DNA from: Minisyncoccota bacterium
Lineage (GTDB): Bacteria; Patescibacteriota; Minisyncoccia; Phycocordibacterales; UBA6899
Length of the DNA: 64,000 nt
Assembly: GCA_035583355.1 (NCBI GenBank)
Contig: DATEZQ010000001.1
Coordinates: forward strand, 75,055 to 139,054
Direction: 5' to 3'
Shown: positions 3,704 through 60,897 of the stretch, piece by piece
Position numbering within the stretch: the first letter of the stretch is position 1
Layout: every line of letters begins with the position of its first letter
Program-made: the position numbers and the translations under genes
Notes under the pieces: generated by a model
The model's input: the letters and a program-made list of their open reading frames with translations, nothing else
Database searches by the model: none
What the model was told of the DNA's origin: nothing

Positions 3704-4702
3704 TTAAGCTTCGGACGATTCGAGTTCACGCACTTTGGGCGCTGCTAAATCCATCAGGGTGGCGAGTGCATCAGCAAGCCTGAACTTGTTCACTCGAGAG
3801 TAATCAAACTTCCTGTTCTCGCTGGTGCCGCGCTGAAAGAGGCCGCCTGCGGGAGTGATGTGCCACTCCGAGCGTTCGCGAGCTTCGTCGATGAGGGCCA
3901 TGATGGTGACGTCGTCGAGCTTGATCTTCACGCTAGGGTGACGAAGGATGCCGAGGTTGTAGCCATCATTGAAGATGATGACCTTCACTCCATGATCATG
4001 GAAGAGCGCACCGTGCACAGGGCTATTTGCCGCACGCGCAGTGATGGCAATCCGTCCTTCGTGGATGAGCTCTGTCCTCTCGGCTGCTTCCTTGATCTGA
4101 ATGCGCGACTTGCCCGACTTCAGCATGCCATCGAAGAGCTCGCTCATGCGCGAGAAGTGCACGTCTCCACCGTGGGGGTAGAGAGACTTCAGGGCACAGA
4201 GGACTGCATCGATGCCCGTATGAGAGATCACTGATTGCAACTCCTTCTTTCCGTTTGGGGAAAGGAGCTGGCCCATTGTCTTCAGGGGGTGCATGAGGCT
4301 GACGTAACGCGAGAGGTCTGCAAGCGCCTGCTTGTCGGCCTCCGTACCATACTTTTTGAGAATGGCAGGGAAGGTCTCGAGTAAACGCCCATTCATCGTG
4401 GCCTTTTCGGCCTTGGTGAGGGTGTCCTCGGTACCGACGAAAAGGTCGTTGGGCTTCACGTCCTTCAGGGGCGGAAAGCGCTTCATGAACTTGACTTCGG
4501 CCGCCTTGCGCTCAGGAATGAACGTCTTGGTCGCCCAGAGCGCGGCGAGGACGGGGAGGTTTGCTGAGCCGAGAACCCAGATATTCGTTACGAGCACGAT
4601 TACTCCTTCGATTGCGCAGGTGCGCATTGTAAGGTGGAAAAGAACGAAAATTGCGCCAAATGCGCAATGGCACGCGACGTGCTGCCGTTGTAGTGATAAC
4701 AT
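3704..4702 (-). CDS. hypothetical protein (start uncertain)
   Basis: 332-aa ORF with a hydrophobic N-terminus; no confident family assignment. Confidence 0.5.
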   Translation of the reverse strand: MLSLQRQHVACHCAFGAIFVLFHLTMRTCAIEGVIVLVTNIWVLGSANLPVLAALWATKTFIPERKAAEVKFMKRFPPLKDVKPNDLFVGTEDTLTKAEKATMNGRLLETFPAILKKYGTEADKQALADLSRYVSLMHPLKTMGQLLSPNGKKELQSVISHTGIDAVLCALKSLYPHGGDVHFSRMSELFDGMLKSGKSRIQIKEAAERTELIHEGRIAITARAANSPVHGALFHDHGVKVIIFNDGYNLGILRHPSVKIKLDDVTIMALIDEARERSEWHITPAGGLFQRGTSENRKFDYSRVNKFRLADALATLMDLAAPKVRELESSEA

Positions 4703-4758
4703 GATATTTCACCTCAGTCAAGATGACTCCATAGGGTCTTGACGCTCTCTTCTCCTTC

Positions 4759-5052
4759 GTGTATTATTCAAACATGCATTTGAATGAACTGGCAAAAAAG
4801 ATTCGCACTGTTGGGGACGAGAGCCGTTTGCGCATACTTTGCGTCATATTTGAAGGGCGCAAAATCTGCGTTTCAGAGATTGCTGCGAAGCTCGATATGA
4901 GTGTAGCTATTGTCTCACACCATCTTCGTGCCTTGCAGGATGAGGGATTGCTTATTCCAATGCGCGATGGAAAGCATGTTTGCTATGAAATTTCGGATGA
5001 AAAGTTCATGGAGGACTTAAAAAAGTTTATTTGTAAATATAACGCTGAATAA
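4759..5052 (+). CDS. ArsR/SmtB family transcriptional regulator
   Basis: Winged-HTH ESRLRILCVIFEGRKICVSEIAAKLDMSVAIVSHHLRALQDEGLL. Confidence 0.8.
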   Translation: MYYSNMHLNELAKKIRTVGDESRLRILCVIFEGRKICVSEIAAKLDMSVAIVSHHLRALQDEGLLIPMRDGKHVCYEISDEKFMEDLKKFICKYNAE

Positions 5053-5053
5053 T

Positions 5054-5293
5054 ATGAATACTAAAGAAGTAATCGTTTACTCAACACCGAGCTGCCCATA
5101 CTGCGTCTACGCAAAGCAGTATTTTACTGAGCATGGTGTGACATTTAAGGATATCGACGTGAGCCGAGATCGTGCTGCGGCGATGGAAATGGTCCAGAAG
5201 TCTGGTCAAATGGGTGTTCCTGTCATTGATATTGGTGGCGAAATCACTGTTGGTTTCCGTCCTGATGTTTTTGCAAAGCAGCTCGGCCTATAG
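5054..5293 (+). CDS. glutaredoxin-like protein (NrdH/YruB type)
   Basis: 79 aa with a CPYC active site and thioredoxin-fold pattern; start 2 nt after the ArsR stop. Confidence 0.8.
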   Translation: MNTKEVIVYSTPSCPYCVYAKQYFTEHGVTFKDIDVSRDRAAAMEMVQKSGQMGVPVIDIGGEITVGFRPDVFAKQLGL

Positions 5294-5342
5294 AACGAAA
5301 GCACCACATCGTGGTGTTTTTTGTTGGTGATATAATAGTTGC

Positions 5343-5741
5343 ATGGAAAAGATTGCGCAGTTTGTTCGTGAGAAAAATGAATTACTCCGCGCAACGCCAG
5401 ATCTTTCGCTGCGTACGTTGTATGTTGTTGTATCTCTGTGTCTCGTTGTCTCTGCGTATTTGCTTGGAGAAATGCATGGTCGCTCCAGTGTCGCAGAAAG
5501 CCAATTAAGTGTTTCTGGCGCGTTAGCCTATGTGCCATATGATAAGACGCCGCTTCTTGCTACTGGAAATGGTTCCGAGAAAGCCGCAAAGAATTTTGTG
5601 GCGTCTGTAAGTGGGAAACTCTATTATCCTGCAGATTGTAAGGCGGCACAGCGCATCAAGGAAGAGAATAGAATATGGTTTGCAACACTCGCAGAAGCGA
5701 AATTAAGTGGCTTGTCGCCATCACCGCAATGTAACCGTTAG
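5343..5741 (+). CDS. membrane-anchored protein with C-terminal Ada-like Cys-rich metal-binding domain
   Basis: N-terminal TM helix; C-terminus YYPADCKAAQRIKEENRIWFATLAEAKLSGLSPSPQC resembles the Ada-type metal-binding / sunset-like domain. Confidence 0.5.
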   Translation: MEKIAQFVREKNELLRATPDLSLRTLYVVVSLCLVVSAYLLGEMHGRSSVAESQLSVSGALAYVPYDKTPLLATGNGSEKAAKNFVASVSGKLYYPADCKAAQRIKEENRIWFATLAEAKLSGLSPSPQCNR

Positions 5742-5778
5742 CTTGTGAGACAGTTAGAATGTTCTACGATATAATCAC

Positions 5779-6885
5779 ATGATGGATAGGATCTCGAAAG
5801 CATTATTGTTCTATTTGCGCTACAGACATACATTCAGTCCGATTATTTTTGCTATCACGTTTATTATAGACGTGGCAACATTTCCGCAAGTTGATTCCCC
5901 GAGGGCGATACTTCTTGCATCGATCTACGCAGGGTTAACACTATTCCTTCTTTTTGTCTTTGCGCGAAGTGCAGAAGGCGATATGTCTGATGGGAAAAGT
6001 AGGCGATGGGACCCCACGGTGAAACTCATACTCGATATCCTTTTGCAGTTTGCGTTTGGTGCATTCGCCAGTGTGCTCTTCGTATCATATCTTAAGGGTT
6101 CAGATGTGATTACGAGTATTCCATTCCTGCTCATCTTATTTGTATTTGTTACGGGAAATGAGTTCGCAAGTAATCACCGTTCGCGCGTGTGGGTTCGGTT
6201 TAGTGCCACACTTTTCCTTTGTTACGCCTATTTACTCTATCTTGTTCCACTCGTTCGGAATGAATTAGGTTTCACTTCGCTCTCGATAAGTACTGCACTC
6301 ACGGGTGGACTTGCAGTTTTCATGCTTATGCTTCTTGGTGCTACAGCACCACGCCTCTTCATGAAGACTAAGGTAGTCCTCATTTCTGCAACTATAGCGA
6401 TTTTGCTTGGTATTCCACTGCTTATTTATTCAGGAAGCATTCCTCCGCTCCCGCTCATGTTGCGTGAGGGTACAGTCCTTCATGACATAAGTCGAGTTAA
6501 TGCTACGGATTATCTTGCACTGCAAGAGCCGCAAGCGATATACGCACGCTTTGGTCTTCCAAGATTGTTGCCGCGGTATCATGTAAGGACGGGTGAAGGC
6601 CTTACATTCTTTACTGCAGTTTATGCACCCGCTGATATTAAGACCAATCTTATACATCGCTGGGAACGCTTTGATCCAGCTTTGGGAGAGTACGTTCAGC
6701 GTTCGGTGATCCCTCTTGTGATTTCAGGTGGCCGTCAAAATGGTTATCGTACCTATTCAACTGTTGATTCGATTGAACCAGGCACGTGGAGGGTGGTTGC
6801 AGAACTTGGAGCCAAGCAGATCCTTGGATATCGCACATTCGAAGTACTCGTAGGGAATCCGTCATTGAAAGAGGTAATCAAATAA
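5779..6885 (+). CDS. polytopic membrane protein, unknown function
   Basis: 368 aa with at least 8 predicted TM helices. Confidence 0.6.
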   Translation: MMDRISKALLFYLRYRHTFSPIIFAITFIIDVATFPQVDSPRAILLASIYAGLTLFLLFVFARSAEGDMSDGKSRRWDPTVKLILDILLQFAFGAFASVLFVSYLKGSDVITSIPFLLILFVFVTGNEFASNHRSRVWVRFSATLFLCYAYLLYLVPLVRNELGFTSLSISTALTGGLAVFMLMLLGATAPRLFMKTKVVLISATIAILLGIPLLIYSGSIPPLPLMLREGTVLHDISRVNATDYLALQEPQAIYARFGLPRLLPRYHVRTGEGLTFFTAVYAPADIKTNLIHRWERFDPALGEYVQRSVIPLVISGGRQNGYRTYSTVDSIEPGTWRVVAELGAKQILGYRTFEVLVGNPSLKEVIK

Positions 6886-11926: not shown

Positions 11927-12343
11927 ATGGAACAATTCAAGTCAAAAAAAATCCTCGTTGTCGAGGATGAGAAAGATATGAGAGATGTTATCGTTGAGAC
12001 ATTGACGGAAGTCGGTTATCCCGTTGTCTCAGCAGCAGACGCAGTTGAAGGGATGAAGCTCTACCATGATGAGCACCCGGACTTGATCGTCTTAGACATC
12101 CTGATGCCAGGAAAGACAGGACTTGCGCTCCTTAGTGATATACGCAAGGAGCCGGGAGGTGATAAGGTACATGTGATTATGCTCACCAACTATAATCCAA
12201 CAAATAGTAACCTCATTGAGCCAATACTTAAAAGTAATCCGGAATACTATCTGATAAAGAGTAATATATCGATGGATACGCTTGTTGATAAAGTTCGCTC
12301 AAGCTTCGAAATGGAACTAGAAAATAAAAACACCCCTAAGTAG
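11927..12343 (+). CDS. response regulator, receiver domain only
   Basis: KKILVVEDEKDMR...LIVLDILMPGKTGL...IMLTNY; no DNA-binding output domain. Confidence 0.85.
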   Translation: MEQFKSKKILVVEDEKDMRDVIVETLTEVGYPVVSAADAVEGMKLYHDEHPDLIVLDILMPGKTGLALLSDIRKEPGGDKVHVIMLTNYNPTNSNLIEPILKSNPEYYLIKSNISMDTLVDKVRSSFEMELENKNTPK

Positions 12344-30124: not shown

Positions 30125-30153
30125 TTGCAAAAATTTTTCAATCATGTATATTT
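30125..30153 (+). promoter_or_regulatory. putative sigma70-type promoter of tRNA-Ala (TTGCAA -35 / TATATT -10)
   Basis: TTGCAA at 30125-30130, 16-17 nt spacer, ATATTT/TATATT, about 10 nt before the tRNA 5' end; same TTGCAA -35 seen upstream of tRNA-Lys and tRNA-Leu. Confidence 0.45.
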
Positions 30154-30163
30154 ATCTCCACAC

Positions 30164-30236
30164 GGGCCCATAGCTCAGTTGGTAGAGCAGCGCATTTGCA
30201 ATGCGAAGGTCGCAGGTTCAAATCCTGTTGGGTCCA
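30164..30236 (+). tRNA. tRNA-Ala (anticodon TGC), no encoded CCA
   Basis: Manual cloverleaf: acceptor GGGCCCA/TGGGTCC with the Ala identity pair G3:U70, D-arm GCTC-AGTTGGTA-GAGC, anticodon loop TTTGCAA, T-arm GCAGG-TTCAAAT-CCTGT, discriminator A. Confidence 0.9.
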
Positions 30237-30300
30237 CAGAGGTAGAAAAAAGAGCGCAAGCTCTTTTTTCTTTTACCTCTGTGAGACCCAACAGGATTTG
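30218..30300. repeat. extended imperfect palindrome: tRNA-Ala 3' end / terminator-like hairpin / inverted copy of tRNA 3' end
   Basis: TCAAATCCTGTTGGGTCCACAGAGGTAGAAAAAAGAGC-GCAA-GCTCTTTTTTCTTTTACCTCTGTGAGACCCAACAGGATTTGA; arms about 38 nt. Confidence 0.7.
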
Positions 30301-30446
30301 AAAGACGGAGCCGGGCACCGTCGCCCGGCGCTGATTTTATCCGGCCAAAGGCCGTGATAAATCCAGCCGCGCGCACGGTCGGCGAGTCGGGGTCGCGAGT
30401 ACTTAGCAAATAAGGAGCGAAGCTCCGCATTTGCTTAGTAACTTGT
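30237..30446 (+). repeat. tRNA-3'-trailer structured repeat element, copy E1 (truncated), candidate ncRNA
   Basis: Reverse complement aligns with E2-E4: shares the CGCGACCCCGACTCGCCGAC...GCGCGCGGCTGGATTT core, the GCCGGGC/GCCCGGC hairpin, the GGATTTATC...GATAAATCC hairpin and a CTTAG-flanked variable hairpin; lacks the distal ~90 nt. Confidence 0.6.
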
Positions 30447-30625
30447 GACCAAATCCTGTTGGGTCCTCCATTCTTTCTTTTGTATTTGAATTTGCATTTC
30501 CGGTGACAGAGGGGCAAATCCTGTTGGGTCTCTCTGGTTACGAGCGAAGCACCTTATTGTATTTGTGACTCGTGACCAAATCCTGTTGGGTCCTCTGCAT
30601 TCTTGTATTTTGCATTTCTCCTAAT
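30447..30625 (+). repeat. array of direct repeats of the tRNA-Ala 3' end (att-like fragments)
   Basis: CCAAATCCTGTTGGGTCC at 30449-30466, CAAATCCTGTTGGGTC at 30515-30530, CCAAATCCTGTTGGGTCC at 30576-30593; copies 1 and 3 sit in a ~60-nt duplicated unit (GTGACCAAATCCTGTTGGGTCCTC...ATTC..TTGTATTT..GCATTTC). Confidence 0.7.
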
Positions 30626-49196: not shown

Positions 49197-49240
49197 GATA
49201 ATATAAATGCAAAAAGCGCCGAGCGGCGCTTTTTGGTTTT

Positions 49241-49539
49241 GATGCGAGGGGAGCCAAAAACCGTTCCGGTTTTTGACTCATTGAACGCTTCGCGTGCATG
49301 AATCAGAGTCGAGTTCCTCGCCCCTTCGTCTCTAAGTATTCTGCTCCAAGCATTCGCAGAATACTAAGAGCGAGTAGGGCCAGGGCTCACCGACCGTGCA
49401 CGCGGCTGGATTTCTCACGGCCCTAGCAAGGGCCGGACAAATCAGCGCCGGGTGACGGTGCCCGGCTCCGCCCTTCGAGTTCTCGAGGGGGTGGCAGCAC
49501 ATAGCAAAAAAGACGCTTTCGCGTCTTTTTTGTATGCTG
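49241..49539 (-). repeat. tRNA-3'-trailer structured repeat element, copy E2 (downstream of tRNA-Lys), candidate ncRNA
   Basis: Full-length copy, in order along the tRNA strand: terminator-like hairpin (49505-49532), inverted copy of the tRNA-Lys 3' end (49474-49491), GCCGGG..CCCGGC hairpin, GGATTT..AAATC hairpin, conserved core 49375-49413, CTAAG-flanked variable hairpin, distal AAAAACCG-TTC-CGGTTTTT hairpin. Confidence 0.6.
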
Positions 49540-49612
49540 TCCCCCCTCGAGGACTCGAACCTCGGACCGTCTCGTTAAGAGCGAGCTGCTCTACCAACTG
49601 AGCTAAGGAGGG
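49540..49612 (-). tRNA. tRNA-Lys (anticodon CTT), no encoded CCA
   Basis: Manual fold of the reverse complement: acceptor CCCTCCT/AGGGGGG, D-arm GCTC-AGTTGGTA-GAGC, anticodon loop CTCTTAA, T-arm CGAGG-TTCGAGT-CCTCG, discriminator A. Confidence 0.85.
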
Positions 49613-49716: not shown

Positions 49717-50079
49717 TTATTCATCGAGGAATTCCTGCATCTTCCAGAGCTCGTCGCGCATGAGCGTGAGGATCTTGGGGTTCTCGATGCGGCCGTGGCC
49801 GTGGCGGTATTCACCGAGCTTGTCGGTGCAGATGTGCTCACCGGTGGTCTGATTCACGCGGTGCTTCTTCTTGACGAGGCACGAGCACTCATCCTTCTTT
49901 GGAATGAGGATTTCGACCGTAAAGGTCTCGGTCGGCTCACTCACATCGTCGGCGCGGGTGCGGGCGACATGGGTGACGAGGCCGACACGAAGCTTCTGGG
50001 TCTTGTGCTTTTTGGCAGCGTCGCGACTGAGCACGACGTTCATGCCGGCATTGATGGGGTCAAGAACGATGGGAAGCAT
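49717..50079 (-). CDS. small Cys/His-rich hypothetical protein (120 aa)
   Basis: Start at MLPIVLDP; contains CSC...HRV...HIC...HGHG cluster; own terminator (49670-49705). Confidence 0.5.
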   Translation of the reverse strand: MLPIVLDPINAGMNVVLSRDAAKKHKTQKLRVGLVTHVARTRADDVSEPTETFTVEILIPKKDECSCLVKKKHRVNQTTGEHICTDKLGEYRHGHGRIENPKILTLMRDELWKMQEFLDE

Positions 50080-50203
50080 GTGCACTCCTTTGATATGCGT
50101 GATTGAGGAACTGCTTGTCGCATAGTAACATACAGTATACAAATGTCAAGGAATGAAAAAGGCTCGCATTGTGCGAGCCTCGTTGGCCGGAGCCAGGGAA
50201 GTA

Positions 50204-50515
50204 CTAGTCCTGATCCTCAGGAAAGGTGATCTCCGAGAACATTCCCGTGGGGATGTTCTGGACATCATGGGTCGGCGTGGCACCGAACCGCTTGCTGCAC
50301 TCCTTGCACGTGGCCAGGCCATGGCGGTGATTGAAGCGGAGTTCTCCCTTGCAGGAGTCGCACTTCTTTTTGATCACAGGCTTGGCCATCGTGACGGTCG
50401 TGACGCCATCCCGATAGTGGGACTTCACGAAGCCGACGGAGCTCGAGAGCTTGAGCTTGGCGACGATCTCTTTCGAGAGGACGACCATGGTGCCGGGGGA
50501 GAGCTGAGAGTTCAT
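50204..50515 (-). CDS. small zinc-ribbon protein (103 aa)
   Basis: Start at MNSQLSPG; C-terminal CDSCKGELRF...CKECSKRF zinc-ribbon pattern. Confidence 0.5.
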   Translation of the reverse strand: MNSQLSPGTMVVLSKEIVAKLKLSSSVGFVKSHYRDGVTTVTMAKPVIKKKCDSCKGELRFNHRHGLATCKECSKRFGATPTHDVQNIPTGMFSEITFPEDQD

Positions 50516-50600
50516 CAGAACCCTTTCAAGGAAAATGGAACGGAACGTCCGATCCGTTGTTACAATAGCATGGATTAGGGTGGAAGTCAATAGGTGGGGA

Positions 50601-50900
50601 TACGATACGAGGGGAGCCGAAAAACCCTGCGGGTTTTTGACTCATGGAACGCTTCGCGCACAGGAATCGGAGTCGAGAGACTCGCCCCTTTGTCACTAAG
50701 TCTTTTGGCGTAGTAACGCCAAAACGACTAAGTGCAAGTAGGGCCAGGACTCGCCGACTGCGCGCACGGCTGGATTTACCACGAGCGAAGCTCGGGTAAA
50801 TCCGCGCCGGTGCGGCAGTAGCACCGGCTCCGTCCTTCGAGTCCCGCTCCGGGTCTCAGTGGTTAACAAAAAAGAGCTTACGCTCTTTTTTGAACCACTG
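50601..50900 (-). repeat. tRNA-3'-trailer structured repeat element, copy E3 (downstream of tRNA-Leu), candidate ncRNA
   Basis: Aligns with E2 over its whole length; hairpins at 50859-50900 (AAAAAAGAGC-TTAC-GCTCTTTTTT core), 50806-50827, 50768-50807, 50695-50731 (CTAAG-flanked), 50616-50640; inverted tRNA-Leu 3' end copy at 50836-50858; 30-nt block GACTCGCCGACTGCGCGCACGGCTGGATTT (50748-50777) identical in E4. Confidence 0.6.
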
Positions 50901-50983
50901 TGCCCGGGGCGGGACTCGAACCCGCACGCCCGTGAGAGCGGGAGATTTTAAGTCTCCTGCGGCTACCATTACGCCACCCGGAC
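50901..50983 (-). tRNA. tRNA-Leu (anticodon TAA), long variable arm, no encoded CCA
   Basis: Reverse complement GTCCGGGTGGCGTAATGGTAGCCGCAGGAGACTTAAAATCTCC-CGCTCTCACGGGCG-TGCGGGTTCGAGTCCCGCCCCGGGCA; anticodon loop CTTAAAA. Confidence 0.85.
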
Positions 50984-52084: not shown

Positions 52085-52387
52085 AATTACAATACAAGGG
52101 CACTCAAAAACCTTGGGGTTTTGAGTGAAGGAGCGCAAGAACGCGCGAAATCGGAGTTCGGGAATCGGTCACAAGTTTCTAAGTTTTCTTCTCCGCACTG
52201 CTCGAAGAAAACTAAGAACTCGCGACCCCGACTCGCCGACTGCGCGCACGGCTGGATTTATCACGGCTCAGAGAGCCGGATAAAATCAGCAGCCGGTGCG
52301 GCAGTAGCACCGGCTCCGTCTTTCGATTCCCGCCCGTGCTGAAAAATGAAACAATCCCAAAGCTTTCGCTTTGGGATTGTCATTTTG
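52085..52387 (-). repeat. tRNA-3'-trailer structured repeat element, copy E4 (downstream of tRNA-Cys), candidate ncRNA
   Basis: Same architecture as E2/E3: hairpin 52340-52386 (arms extend into the tRNA 3' end), inverted tRNA-Cys 3' copy 52322-52339, GCCGGTGC..GCACCGGC hairpin, GGATTTATC..GATAAAATC hairpin, core 52230-52259 identical to E3, CTAAG-flanked hairpin 52179-52216, distal hairpin CTCAAAACC-TTGG-GGTTTTGAG. Confidence 0.6.
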
Positions 52388-52459
52388 AGGCACGGGCGGG
52401 AATCGAACCCGCGCATGTCGGTTTTGCAGACCGAAGCGTTACCACTTCGCCACCGTGCC
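52388..52459 (-). tRNA. tRNA-Cys (anticodon GCA), no encoded CCA
   Basis: Reverse complement GGCACGG-TG-GCG-AAGTGGTAA-CGC-T-TCGGT-CTGCAAA-ACCGA-CATG-CGCGGGTTCGATTCCCGC-CCGTGCC-T; discriminator U as expected for Cys. Confidence 0.85.
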
Positions 52460-58209: not shown

Positions 58210-60897
58210 ATGCCACCTTTTCAAAATTTTACCGCAAAAGCCCGTGACGCGATTCGCCGTGCTCATGAACTCGCAATTGAGCGTGAACAGACCCATGTAA
58301 CTCCTATGCATTTGCTTGCAGGATTGCTCCTGCAGGAAGAAAGCATGGTACTCACTATTCTTGAGAAACTGGATATCGACAGTGCTTTTTTCACCGAGCA
58401 GGTGACCGAGCGTATTGACGATGGTTCAGAACGCGCAGGTGGCATGGCCGCTTCGTATCAACTCTATCTCACTGCTGAGCTTGCACAAATTCTCGAAAAC
58501 TCTCAGCTCATCGGACAGGAGCTCAAGGATCAGTTTATTTCTACAGAGCATATGCTTATGGCCATGCTTAATGTGCCTTCGCCGGCAGAAAAGCTTCTCG
58601 CACAAAACAAGGTGACACGAGAGCGTATTCTTGGTGCACTCAAACAGATCCGTGAAAACACCGATGGCGCAGGGCAAGGCGCAGCACAGTCAAAGCAGCG
58701 TGCAATCACGAAGTATACACGCTCACTTACAAAACTCGCCCAAGAGGATAAGCTTGATCCTGTTGTGGGACGTGATGAGGAGACTGGTCGCTTGATTCAG
58801 ATTCTTTCTCGTCGCACAAAAAACAATCCTATTCTTATCGGTGATGCGGGTACTGGTAAAACCGCAGTTGTCGAGGGACTTGCGCAGCGCATTGCGAAAG
58901 GCGATGTGCCTGAGTTCCTCCGCGACAAGGACTTGGTCTCTCTTGATCTTGGTCTTTTGATTGCAGGAACAAAATATCGTGGTGAATTCGAGGAACGACT
59001 AAAGGCGATCATGAAGGAGATTGAGCGCTCTGAAGGGAAGATTATCCTTTTTATCGATGAAATTCATACTATCGTTGGAGCTGGAGCTGCTGAAGGTTCG
59101 ATGGATGCGTCGAATATGCTCAAGCCTGCACTTGCACGCGGGGAGCTCCGTGCCATTGGTGCAACAACGATAAAAGAGTATCAGAAACATATTGAAAAGG
59201 ACCCCGCGCTCACGCGTCGTTTCCAGCCGGTATACGTGCAGGAGCCATCGATTGAGGATGCGGTCGCAATACTTCGCGGCCTTAAGGAGAAATATGAAAT
59301 ATTCCATGGCGTGAAAATCACTGACGACGCTATTCTTGCAGCAGTGAATCTTTCTTCTCGATATATTACTGATCGTGCACTTCCTGATAAGGCCGTTGAT
59401 CTTATCGACGAAGCGGCTTCGAGCCTACGCATTGAGCTCGAAAATAAACCCGCAGTCCTTGAACAAGCACATCGAAAGATCATGCGTCTTGAAATAGAGA
59501 ACGAGGCGCTCAAGAAAGATACTGAGGGTGAAGGTGATGCAGCAAAGCGAGCCAAAGAGCGAGTGAAGGTGATTAACAGAGAGATTGCTGATTTGCGTGA
59601 GGAGACAAGAGAGTTTGAGCTCAAATGGAACAATGAGAAGACGCTTGTCGTTGATCTCAAGAACATTAAGAAGGAGCTTGAGACACTACGTGTCGAGGCA
59701 GAAAACGCCGAACTTCGTAGTGATCTTTCGAAAGCAGCTGAGATACGTTATGGTCGTATTCCTGTGCTTGATAAGCAGTTGAACGACAAGACGAATAAGC
59801 TTAAGAAGCTCCAGTCGGGAAGGCGAATACTTCGAGAAGAAGTTGCGGAACAAGATATTGCAAAGGTGGTCGCACGTTGGACTGGTGTCCCCGTATCACG
59901 CATGCTTGAAGAGGAGGTTGCGAAATTAAGCCGTATGGAAGATGAACTTCGCGAGCGTGTTGTCGGACAGGATGATGCGATTGCAAAGATCGCAAATGCG
60001 GTGCGTCGCTCACGTGTCGGTATCGGTGACCCTCATCGTCCGATCGGTTCATTCCTTTTCCTCGGACCTACGGGTGTGGGAAAGACAGAGTTGACGAAAG
60101 CACTTGCTAATTTCCTTTTTGATGATGAAAAGGCGCTCATTCGTGTTGATATGTCTGAGTTCATGGAGAAGCACGCAGTATCAAAGCTCGTCGGTGCGCC
60201 TCCGGGATATGTGGGCCACGAAGAAGCAGGCTCACTTACTGAATCTGTTCGACATCGTCCATATTCGGTCGTCCTCTTTGACGAAGTGGAGAAGGCTCAT
60301 CCTGAGGTCTTCAATATACTCTTGCAAGTTCTTGATGATGGTCGCCTCACCGACTCAAAGGGACGTGTGGTGAATTTCAAGAATACGGTGATTGTCATGA
60401 CATCAAATATTGGTTCAGAGTTCATCGACAAGATGCAGAGCATGGGCTTTGGCACGGGCGATGTTAGCCAGGATGCAGAGTATGCAAATACAAAGGCAAA
60501 AGTCATAGAACACCTGAAAGATTACTTCCGTCCAGAGTTCATCAATCGTCTTGATGAAATCATCAGTTTCGATATTCTCTCACCTGAAGTGGTGCGCAAC
60601 ATCGTTGATGTGCAAATTAAGCGCATTGGGGAGCGTCTTGAGCAGAAGGAGATTTCATTAATTGTATCGAGCGATGCTCTTGATAAGCTTGCGAAGGAGG
60701 GCTATAATCCTCAGTTTGGTGCTCGACCACTGCGCCGCTTGATTCAAGAGAAGATCTTGAATCCCGTAGCAAATGCGATGATTAAAGAACGACTTCTTAC
60801 TGGCGCAACGGTCACTGTTGTTCTCAAGAATGATGAGTTGGCAGTAAAAGTAGAGAAGAAAAAGGGACAGTCAAAAGCAAAGCGCGCAAAGGCGTAA
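58210..60897 (+). CDS. clpB: ATP-dependent chaperone ClpB
   Basis: Clp N domain, two AAA+ modules (GDAGTGKT and GPTGVGKT Walker A), long coiled-coil M-domain between them, ClpB_D2-small. Confidence 0.95.

Follow-up and report, generated by a model that had tools for sequence, protein, structure and literature searches.

Structured non-coding cassettes with tRNA-matched arms at the 3' flanks of tRNA and tmRNA genes in Candidatus Paceibacterota

A stretch of 64,000 nucleotides from Minisyncoccota bacterium (contig DATEZQ010000001.1, positions 75,055 to 139,054; hereafter the window) was analysed, starting from a variable hairpin that had been predicted between two copies of the motif CTAAG. The organism was assigned to Candidatus Paceibacterota by IF-2. 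The hairpin belongs to a non-coding cassette of approximately 180-260 nt, which lies at the 3' flank of tRNA and transfer-messenger RNA (tmRNA) genes and carries two arms that copy the 3' end of the adjoining gene. All copies were located at such flanks. In the reading favoured here, given slightly less than an even chance, the cassettes are non-autonomous and use recombination to enter tRNA and tmRNA 3' ends, where they multiply and are exchanged. Sequences used for comparison are designated by L and a number.

Each of the four tRNA genes of the window (Ala, Lys, Leu and Cys) had one convergent element (E1, E2, E3 and E4, respectively), and a bidirectional terminator hairpin lay between gene and element. 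Read on the strand opposite the tRNA, the layout comprised an optional distal module, a 5' arm, the stem P2, an arm with the stems P3 and P4, a 3' arm, the trailer with the terminator, and the tRNA. The element E3 occupied positions 50602-50853 of the plus strand. It began with a distal module (50602-50671), which contained a terminator-like hairpin of the form A5-stem-T5 and a second hairpin; E2 and E4 also have such a module. The short 5' arm GAGACTCG (50677-50684) was the complement of that part of the 3' arm which copies the T-loop and T-stem. It was followed by the complete P2 arm, GCCCCTTTGTCACTAAGT...ACTAAGTGCAAGTAGGGC (50684-50744), and by the core arm (50748-50835), which contained P3, an invariant UC/UCC internal loop, P4 and P5. 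The 3' arm (50836-50853) was an 18-nt copy of positions 54-71 of tRNA-Leu with one mismatch, inverted with respect to the gene. The trailer and the bidirectional terminator hairpin (50854-50899, assigned to neither strand) connected E3 with its partner tRNA-Leu(taa) at 50900-50983 of the minus strand.

The same relation between arm and gene was found in all four window elements. The 3' arm formed the last 18 nt of the element and corresponded to positions ~54-71 of its own tRNA, from the T-loop to the acceptor, with 0-1 mismatch; it was inverted relative to the gene and began 47-48 nt past the gene end, beyond the terminator. Matched arms of this kind were also seen in the relative SKS1.bin43, where the tmRNA has one as well. 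The 5' arm (6-18 nt) was the complement of the 3' arm and repeated the end of the tRNA in direct orientation, starting at C56 and running through position 73 and further; this repeat was able to take in up to 8 nt of non-tRNA trailer. Direct copies bounding the units were found three times at the tRNA-Cys of L122 (CGATTCCCGCCCGTGCCTC) and twice at the tRNA-Leu of L151 (CCTCGGCACAATGAACA); by analogy, they bound each unit as att sites or target duplications might do. The arms followed their tRNA and not one another, as seen in L017, L012 and E3. An origin of the arms from mature, CCA-containing tRNA, in the manner of a primer-binding site, was considered and rejected, as the arms run into the genomic trailer and lack CCA. 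Since CCA is never included, the arms were derived from DNA rather than from mature tRNA. The tRNA genes of the window encode no CCA. In some lineages, the inverted arm was split exactly at the boundary of acceptor and T-stem by a small hairpin. In the lineage with 63% IF-2 identity (L148, 4750-5099 and 6312-6713; L150, 11964-12223), the split was regular, and the hairpin had the form AGCAGC-N-GCTGC and was followed by GTG.

The tRNA end, the trailer, the terminator and the inverted arm together formed one long imperfect palindrome in 12/12 loci, and in E3 the trailer with the terminator hairpin was its centre. Two asymmetries were present in all 12 palindromes, namely a bubble at tRNA positions 72-73 and a bulge of 2-3 nt just outside the terminator stem. 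By direct reading, the spacer between tRNA and element contained the G+C-rich hairpin and the U-tract of an intrinsic terminator, with a loop of the GNRA type on the tRNA strand. A terminator scan placed the terminator of tRNA-Cys at 52381-52350; the other spacers have paired A/T tracts, which were extended into the stem by the scan.

In the predicted fold, pairing of the two arms with each other (P1) can close a three-way junction from which two long arms extend. P2 was the first of these, and the second contained P3, the invariant UC/UCC internal loop, P4 and sometimes P5. The motif CTAAG-N27/28-CTAAG occupied one relative position of P2 in all four window elements, and the enclosed sequence was different in each. 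The original prediction of a variable hairpin between the CTAAG copies was correct in sequence, with coordinates shifted by 0-4 nt; in E3, the bracket of ACTAAGT, variable tip and ACTAAGT forms the distal part of P2 at 50695-50733 of the plus strand, with CTAAG...CTAAG at 50696-50732. The pattern CTAAG-N20-40-CTAAG had five matches in the window, with 1.5 expected, and five were reached in 3 of 100 shuffles; the count on its own was only weakly unusual. The observation was taken as real because of the positional homology in four homologous elements and the covariation of the stem. The only other bracket in the window, a CTAAG-N35-CTAAG at 12091-12135 of the minus strand, lay outside any element and was taken as a chance match. 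Each of the four hairpins was far more stable than its dinucleotide shuffles on both strands, with z values from -3.0 to -6.0 and a value of -5.9 for E3.

The two CTAAG copies had been described as direct repeats. CUAAG pairs antiparallel with CUAAG through C-G, U-A, A·A, A-U and G-C, and with its flanks as ACUAAGU x ACUAAGU; the bracket is therefore a conserved part of one long stem, P2. The two copies are the two strands of one quasi-palindromic helix, neither independent nor functional direct repeats, and their central mismatch is A·A, or U·U on the other strand. The pairing of P2 was evaluated for a 15-pair stem, including both CTAAG halves, in 13 distinct copies from the window and the relative SKS1.bin43. 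The stem was paired in 92.3% of the cells, compared with 66.3% after shuffling (0/500 shuffles reached the observed value) and 34-47% in slid controls, and both sides had been altered in 14 of the 15 pairs. Hence, the proposed stem-loop with a variable tip in a constant frame was supported, its pairing being maintained by compensatory change. The conservation of the flanking CTAAG, which had also been proposed, held for most copies and was not universal. CTAAG was present on both sides in 9 of 15 distinct elements and on the 3' side only in two, where the 5' side was CAAAG; in 4-5 elements, the bracket was replaced with the fully paired CTGTA/TACRG or another sequence. Ordinary pairs stood in place of the bracket in the four copies of subtype (iv), namely those of L001 and L017 and the copies LysD1 and CysC of L122. 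CTAAG is a subtype feature of the conserved stem P2, whose tip is free to vary while it pairs.

The base of P2 (GGUCAC...ACUAAGU / ACUAAGU...GCGACC) was conserved, and the tip varied. The frame GGTCACRAGTTACTAAGT...ACTAAGTACTCKCGACC was nearly identical in a Candidatus Yonathbacteria genome, the IF-2 of which is only 56% identical, and enclosed a different tip there. One element of that genome carried it, with a P2 base, GGTCACGAGTTACTAAGT...ACTAAGTACTCTCGACC, almost equal to that of the window. The second junction arm also covaried. P3 was GAC:GUC, GGC:GCC or AGC:GCU in different body types, and P4 had five different sequences; P3/P4 pairing reached 92.9%; shuffling gave 75.5% (0/500), and slid controls did not exceed 47%. 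In the 63%-IF-2 lineage, a body family designated X has a variable-tip hairpin between TGAAG and CTGAG, a design parallel to the CTAAG bracket.

The variable hairpin had originally been interpreted as a specificity module, namely a guide or target-recognition loop, or a site for a lineage-specific protein partner. A variable tip within a conserved frame, with the pairing kept, agrees with this interpretation. However, nearly identical tips adjoined different tRNAs, one shared by the tmRNA of L012 and the tRNA-Cys of L122 and another by the tRNA-Lys of L001 and the tRNA-Gly of L017, and the tips differed between orthologous tRNA-Cys loci of two species. The loop motif YCGCNNNGCTCG was common to several tips, indicating that the tips are not hypervariable, and in the subtype (iv) copies the supposed flanks are ordinary base pairs. 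A search of all tips against the window with blastn-short gave self matches and chance matches of 11-12 nt only, and no complementary target was found there. The interpretation is largely refuted, and we regard it as highly improbable. Within the element, it is the two arms that match a target, as copies of the 3' end of the adjoining tRNA. A 20-nt segment at 59992-60011 of the window was 90% identical to the hairpin tip of E1 (E = 0.06 with blastn-short), probably by chance.

The distribution of the cassettes was explored by core sequence and by architecture. Outside the window, the core designated type A was found only in the metagenome-assembled genome SKS1.bin43 (IF-2 89% identical), at the Lys, Leu, Val, Gly and Cys tRNAs and the tmRNA, so that type-A bodies were seen in all at Ala, Lys, Leu, Cys, Val and Gly tRNAs and tmRNA. 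A core-pattern scan of GTDB genomes yielded one truly positive other species and 12 matches by chance; the 11 matches in JGI metagenome contigs were all chance matches in coding DNA, and a scan of IMG/VR with three patterns, checked with nhmmer, gave chance matches only. The architecture was far more widespread than the type-A core. The architecture test looked in the 250 nt downstream of each gene for the tRNA 3' end in inverted copy, with shuffles and upstream regions as controls. It was positive at 20 of 22 tRNA/tmRNA genes in four lineages, namely the window, SKS1.bin43, a JGI contig at 65% IF-2 identity and the 63% lineage (z = 4.3-15, with <=1/200 shuffles reaching the score; z <= 3.5 for the upstream controls). 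In the Candidatus Yonathbacteria genome, 4 of 7 tRNAs were positive, which brings the total to 24 of 29 tRNA/tmRNA genes in five Paceibacteria lineages; two lineages, at 67% and 65% IF-2 identity, gave non-significant results. Matched arms were present at no fewer than 12 different tRNA species and at tmRNA. The motif CGGAGC was conserved out to Yonathbacteria. Furthermore, unrelated or diverged bodies had the same arm and terminator architecture (L017 Phe, L148 X/Y and L147). The tRNA-Phe element of L017 (3500-3805) has arms of 20-22 nt, a terminator of the usual type and an unrelated body with an internal duplication of ~55 nt (TTGCTCGCGCACTCCAGAGGAGCCTCGCACGG).

Tandem arrays were observed, with at least three identical copies at the tRNA-Leu of L122 and two each at Cys and Lys; each array unit was bounded by the direct repeat and had its own terminator. 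Decayed remnants were found distal to E1, where the tRNA-Ala 3' segment recurs twice at 30513-30595 of the minus strand with element starts that are truncated, and in the CysC copy of L122. The elements were also mosaic. Cores at different tRNA loci of two species were 93-95% identical but were joined to P2 modules of different subtypes, the most similar elements were not at orthologous tRNAs, and the bodies at the tmRNA of L012 and the Cys locus of L122 were 95% identical with different arms. The assemblies L148 and L150, which have identical IF-2, were ~99% identical up to tRNA-Leu and had wholly different cassettes proximal to tRNA-Cys. Independent Logan short-read contigs of the window organism ended exactly where the conserved core starts.

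The mosaic, gene-conversion-like patterns could also be expected of a passive by-product, in which template switching (quasi-palindrome correction) at tRNA terminators and gene conversion with the tRNA produce a functionless cassette. Such a process would account for arms that track the tRNA sequence and not each other, and for a tRNA end, terminator and inverted copy that form one continuous imperfect palindrome. However, pure correction would erase the bubble and the bulge that recur in 12/12 palindromes. The body helices covary around invariant internal-loop nucleotides, the 93-95% identical cores belong to species whose other intergenic DNA no longer aligns, and even Yonathbacteria have the conserved P2 base. 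We consider this by-product explanation improbable and less likely than the mobile-cassette reading.

In the favoured reading, recombination within the segment from the T-loop to the 3' end would insert, amplify and swap non-autonomous DNA cassettes, and the enzyme would be encoded elsewhere and act in trans. The conserved P2 base with its A·A mismatch (the ACUAAGU bracket) and the P3/P4 arm may be the constant cis-acting parts that the machinery recognises; the P2 tip would be structural filler, and specificity would lie in the att-like, target-matched arms. The anatomy, the covariation, the match between arms and tRNAs, the arrays, the mosaicism, the differences between strains and the phyletic spread were observed, and from there we infer mobility at the DNA level, a single-stranded folded intermediate and a trans-acting recombinase.

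The 3' ends of tRNA genes are classical landing sites of mobile DNA, and tRNA-targeting integrative elements classically attach in the segment from the T-loop to the 3' end. The cassettes resemble these elements, together with the related islands, CIME-like elements and tandem ssrA islands, in the target set of tRNAs and tmRNA, in a repeat that runs from the T-loop to or past the gene end, in direct repeats that bound the units, and in tandem accretion beside the gene, which is left intact. The direct repeats of the tRNA 3' segment that define such elements were found here as copies from C56 to position 73 and beyond, into the trailer, with the gene intact. Unlike integrative elements, the units are only ~200 nt long and non-coding, with no integrase carried or adjoining. 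One body family occurs at many tRNAs and not at one cognate target, an inverted target copy stands right after the terminator, and most sampled tRNA genes are occupied. The cassettes share the target site and the repeat logic of tRNA-targeting integrative elements without an integrase gene and a single target, and they add the inverted target copy and the conserved structured body.

A second likeness is to the folded attachment sites of integrons (attC) and of CTX-phi (the attP(+) hairpin), the latter an integrative mobile element exploiting Xer. The cassette palindromes are imperfect, with conserved bubble and bulge and a variable terminal structure, and the shape is constant while the sequence is free to differ. 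Integrated CTX-type elements leave a junction, a loop and an inverted site, followed at a distance by a direct junction. By analogy, the order of target copy, hairpin, inverted copy and, further on, direct copy in the cassettes resembles this arrangement and may be the trace of integration through a folded, hairpin-shaped attachment site. Unlike attC and CTX-phi, the target of the cassettes is a tRNA end and not dif or attI, and the single-stranded intermediate is hypothetical here.

Several points weigh against mobile cassettes. No integrase, transposase or reverse transcriptase gene was seen adjoining any element or in the 64-kb window, and the enzyme is therefore purely hypothetical. Matched arms at 12 or more tRNA species and tmRNA are not explained by an integrase with one target, and retargeting or gene conversion must thus be assumed. 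The difference between L148 and L150 was a replacement and not a clean insertion; there was no sign of an excised form, an empty site or a circular junction, only the replacement of cassettes between near-identical strains. Moreover, the motifs (ACUAAGU bracket, GGUCAC/GUGACC and CGGAGC) and the covarying helices were kept to 56% IF-2 identity, a degree of conservation that fits a functional RNA equally well as a mobile element.

The main rival explanation, which we regard as somewhat unlikely, is a tRNA-coupled non-coding RNA, most plausibly a read-through 3' trailer in the direction of the tRNA. P1 would then be a minihelix copy of the acceptor/T-arm stack of the partner and would include the genuine 3' strand, the discriminator base and the trailer. 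Like a tRNA, it could be excised by RNase P/Z and have CCA added; its role might be that of a mimic, decoy or sponge of the tRNA, or of a partner in its processing or quality control. Proteins would bind to the P2 arm, in which the segment ACUAAGU x ACUAAGU with its UU or AA mismatch is conserved. Such an RNA agrees with the strong covariation of P2 and P3/P4, with the invariant internal-loop nucleotides and with a P2 base and a CGGAGC motif so deeply conserved that Yonathbacteria share them, although the deep conservation and covariation fit mobile cassettes equally well. The presence of elements at nearly every tRNA and tmRNA also speaks for an RNA.

Clues to expression were mixed in relation to this rival. 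The local promoter consensus TTGCAA-N16-18-TAnnnT was found before every tRNA and open reading frame (ORF) in these regions and before no element on either strand, and the tRNA promoters are the sole promoters able to drive the elements. Promoter sites of the form TTGCAA (or TTGACT)-N16-18-TAnnnT were located at 30125-30152, 49648-49621, 51021-50993, 50590-50562 and other positions, a few bases before mature tRNA 5' ends and also before neighbouring ORFs. The minimum free energy of the whole element was lower on the tRNA-sense strand in 12 of 14 elements, and G·U/A·C counts for whole elements were 36/3 on that strand versus 27/11 on the opposite one, with copies that are not independent in either comparison. 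The conserved internal loop was purine-rich (GGA/GA) on the tRNA-sense strand, the distal module is a terminator-like hairpin, and some loci (L151 Leu-17406 and L126 Cys) had no terminator between tRNA and element. On the other hand, a strong intrinsic terminator with a GNRA loop and a U-tract separated tRNA and element at most loci and all units in arrays, and P2 alone carried no strand signal (5 G·U versus 4 A·C). A housekeeping RNA would not usually show arrays, decayed copies, mosaicism or the replacement of cassettes between strains; the duplicated arm includes non-tRNA trailer bases, the body families are unrelated in sequence, and the L126 and L146 lineages are without clear copies.

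Known RNAs of tRNA-like form and functional tRNA trailers, such as the tRNA-like domains of tmRNA and of bacterial Y-RNA/YrlA, the plant mitochondrial t-elements and the E. coli 3'ETS-leuZ, are similar to the cassettes, which lie directly 3' of a tRNA gene and whose P1 repeats the acceptor/T-stem stack of that tRNA together with its discriminator and trailer. Unlike these RNAs, the cassettes have no T-loop or D-arm, provide one mimic per tRNA species and are usually separated from the gene by a terminator. Neither ARAGORN nor the Rfam tRNA model made a call over the elements, in which only 16-21 nt of the tRNA 3' end are copied. Retron msr-msd RNAs share with the cassettes a closing stem formed from terminal inverted repeats, short conserved hairpins beside a long variable one, and a length of ~150-250 nt. 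Unlike retrons, the cassettes have no adjacent reverse transcriptase gene, occur in many copies per genome and have tRNA-derived arms.

A body that serves as scaffold and an arm that serves as a 17-19-nt guide to tRNA 3' ends, as in omega-RNA, CRISPR RNA or bridge RNA, would be a further possibility, for example for homing at a fixed downstream distance. The constant scaffold does end in a 17-19-nt segment identical to the target, the distance from target to element is fixed at ~47 nt, and one scaffold family serves many targets. However, no recombinase, TnpB, IscB, IS110, Cas or Tas gene was found next to the elements or in the window. In Rfam 15, no omega-RNA or other guide scaffold was matched; only the four tRNAs passed the gathering score, and a scan to E <= 10 gave over the elements nothing but miRNA- or sRNA-like hairpin noise of <=27 bits. 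The adjoining effector gene or known scaffold family that marks omega-RNA, IS110 bridge RNA and CRISPR RNA was thus absent from the cassettes. Furthermore, both candidate guides would be sequestered by their mutual pairing in P1, and unrelated bodies bear the same arms. A guide RNA is considered quite improbable; like the specificity hairpin, it is less likely than mobile cassettes.

The dispersed repeat families of bacteria (REP/BIME/REPIN, BOX, Correia, RPE and MITE-like elements) are similar to the cassettes in being multi-copy, non-coding and modular, with stable hairpins that often lie beside terminators and with mosaic shuffling of modules. Unlike the cassettes, REP- and BOX-type families are not tied to one gene class and have no target-derived arms; unlike REP systems, the cassettes were not seen with a RAYT or a transposase. 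The cassettes did not show the pattern of MITE and REP families, in which the element encodes its own terminal inverted repeats and many copies are scattered over unrelated sites; their copies were at tRNA/tmRNA 3' flanks, with target-derived arms that varied from copy to copy. No description of elements like the cassettes turned up in the literature searches made.

The remaining window elements were laid out as follows. E1 lay on the minus strand at 30285-30469, with the 5' arm at 30466-30450 (17 nt, the exact complement of the tRNA-Ala 3' end), P2 at 30450-30391, the CTAAG bracket at 30438-30402, the core at 30388-30303 and the 3' arm at 30302-30285, which matched at 18/18 positions; its partner tRNA-Ala(tgc) was located at 30164-30237 of the plus strand. 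E2 occupied 49238-49491 of the plus strand, with the distal module at 49238-49307, P2 at 49320-49380, the CTAAG bracket at 49332-49368, the core at 49384-49473 and the 3' arm at 49474-49491, and its partner was tRNA-Lys(ctt) at 49539-49612 of the minus strand. E4, on the plus strand at 52095-52339, had a distal module (52095-52147), a 5' arm (52159-52167), P2 (52167-52227) with the bracket at 52179-52216, a core (52230-52321) and a 3' arm (52322-52339) identical to tRNA-Cys 54-71 at 18/18 positions; tRNA-Cys(gca) lay at 52387-52459 of the minus strand and was preceded by infB-rbfA.

The genes around the elements were housekeeping genes (infB-rbfA, ddl, leuS, yceG and uvrABC), a nucleoside-kinase-like ATPase gene and small ORFs with no assigned function. 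When compared with Pfam, PHROGs, NCBIfam and PDB, the ORFs lying between the tRNAs and a set of 28 ORFs of the window yielded housekeeping matches or none, and no tyrosine recombinase was present among the scanned ORFs of the window. Two small ORFs on the minus strand of the window, at 49717-50142 and 50204-50518, were weakly paralogous (28% identity over 81 aa) with a Cys/His-rich C-terminal part; they are located between tRNA-Leu/E3 and tRNA-Lys, their synteny is kept in SKS1.bin43, and they had no match in Pfam, PHROG, NCBIfam or PDB.

Recombinase genes were seen at two other tRNAs of the comparison sequences. In L006 (SKS1.bin43, JAJZQJ010000001), the region 4154-6617 encodes a large serine recombinase of 549 aa (Resolvase, Recombinase and Zn-ribbon) with a cI/LexA-like repressor before it; at its 3' end, the recombinase ORF overlaps a tRNA-Ser on the opposite strand (6497-6586), and the region looks like a prophage-like island at a tRNA with no cassette. 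In L151 (Ca. Yonathbacteria DMXK01000004, 12411-14663), the end of a large serine recombinase gene lies inside the tRNA-Lys 3' end, and after it comes a gene for REP_ORF2-G2P, a rolling-circle replication initiator; this appears to be an integrated island like a single-stranded DNA replicon, again at a tRNA with no cassette. Both recombinases belong to other, larger islands. A tandem 103-nt unit in at least four copies, with an assembly gap, stood directly after the tRNA-Arg of L017 (4664-5133); it opens with a near-copy of the tRNA D-arm region, has no 3'-end arms and is a different kind of repeat. In the relatives L126 (15251-18507), L146 (16675-20925) and L148 (10043-14183), 6-8 tandem genes for small type IV secretion system (T4SS) pilins (PF18895) were located a few kb from the infB-tRNA region.

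Genomes of the candidate phyla radiation (CPR) are tiny and tolerate little non-coding DNA. Despite this, 0.2-0.8 kb of conserved, covarying non-coding structure follows 24 of the 29 tested tRNA/tmRNA genes. The cassettes have been missed by current annotation because they are absent from Rfam, and they break short-read assemblies at tRNA loci; the inverted 18-mer ~47 nt past the gene, the ACTAAGT bracket and the UC/UCC loop provide signatures by which they can be searched for. There is a real chance, well short of even, that they represent a categorically new system, either dedicated tRNA-partner RNAs or a self-retargeting mobile element, with different consequences in the two cases. As a mobile element, whose arms are re-copied from whichever tRNA adjoins, they would amount to programmable integration at tRNA ends with no element-encoded enzyme, and to a miniature, enzyme-less class of element that saturates one gene class and faces a retargeting problem. 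As RNAs, they would provide most tRNA species and tmRNA with a structured partner that contains a minihelix copy of the acceptor/T-arm and shares their processing signals. Such an added partner molecule for most tRNA species of a major uncultured lineage would be an unrecognised layer of tRNA biology in the CPR, whether as mimic, decoy, quality-control partner or regulator.

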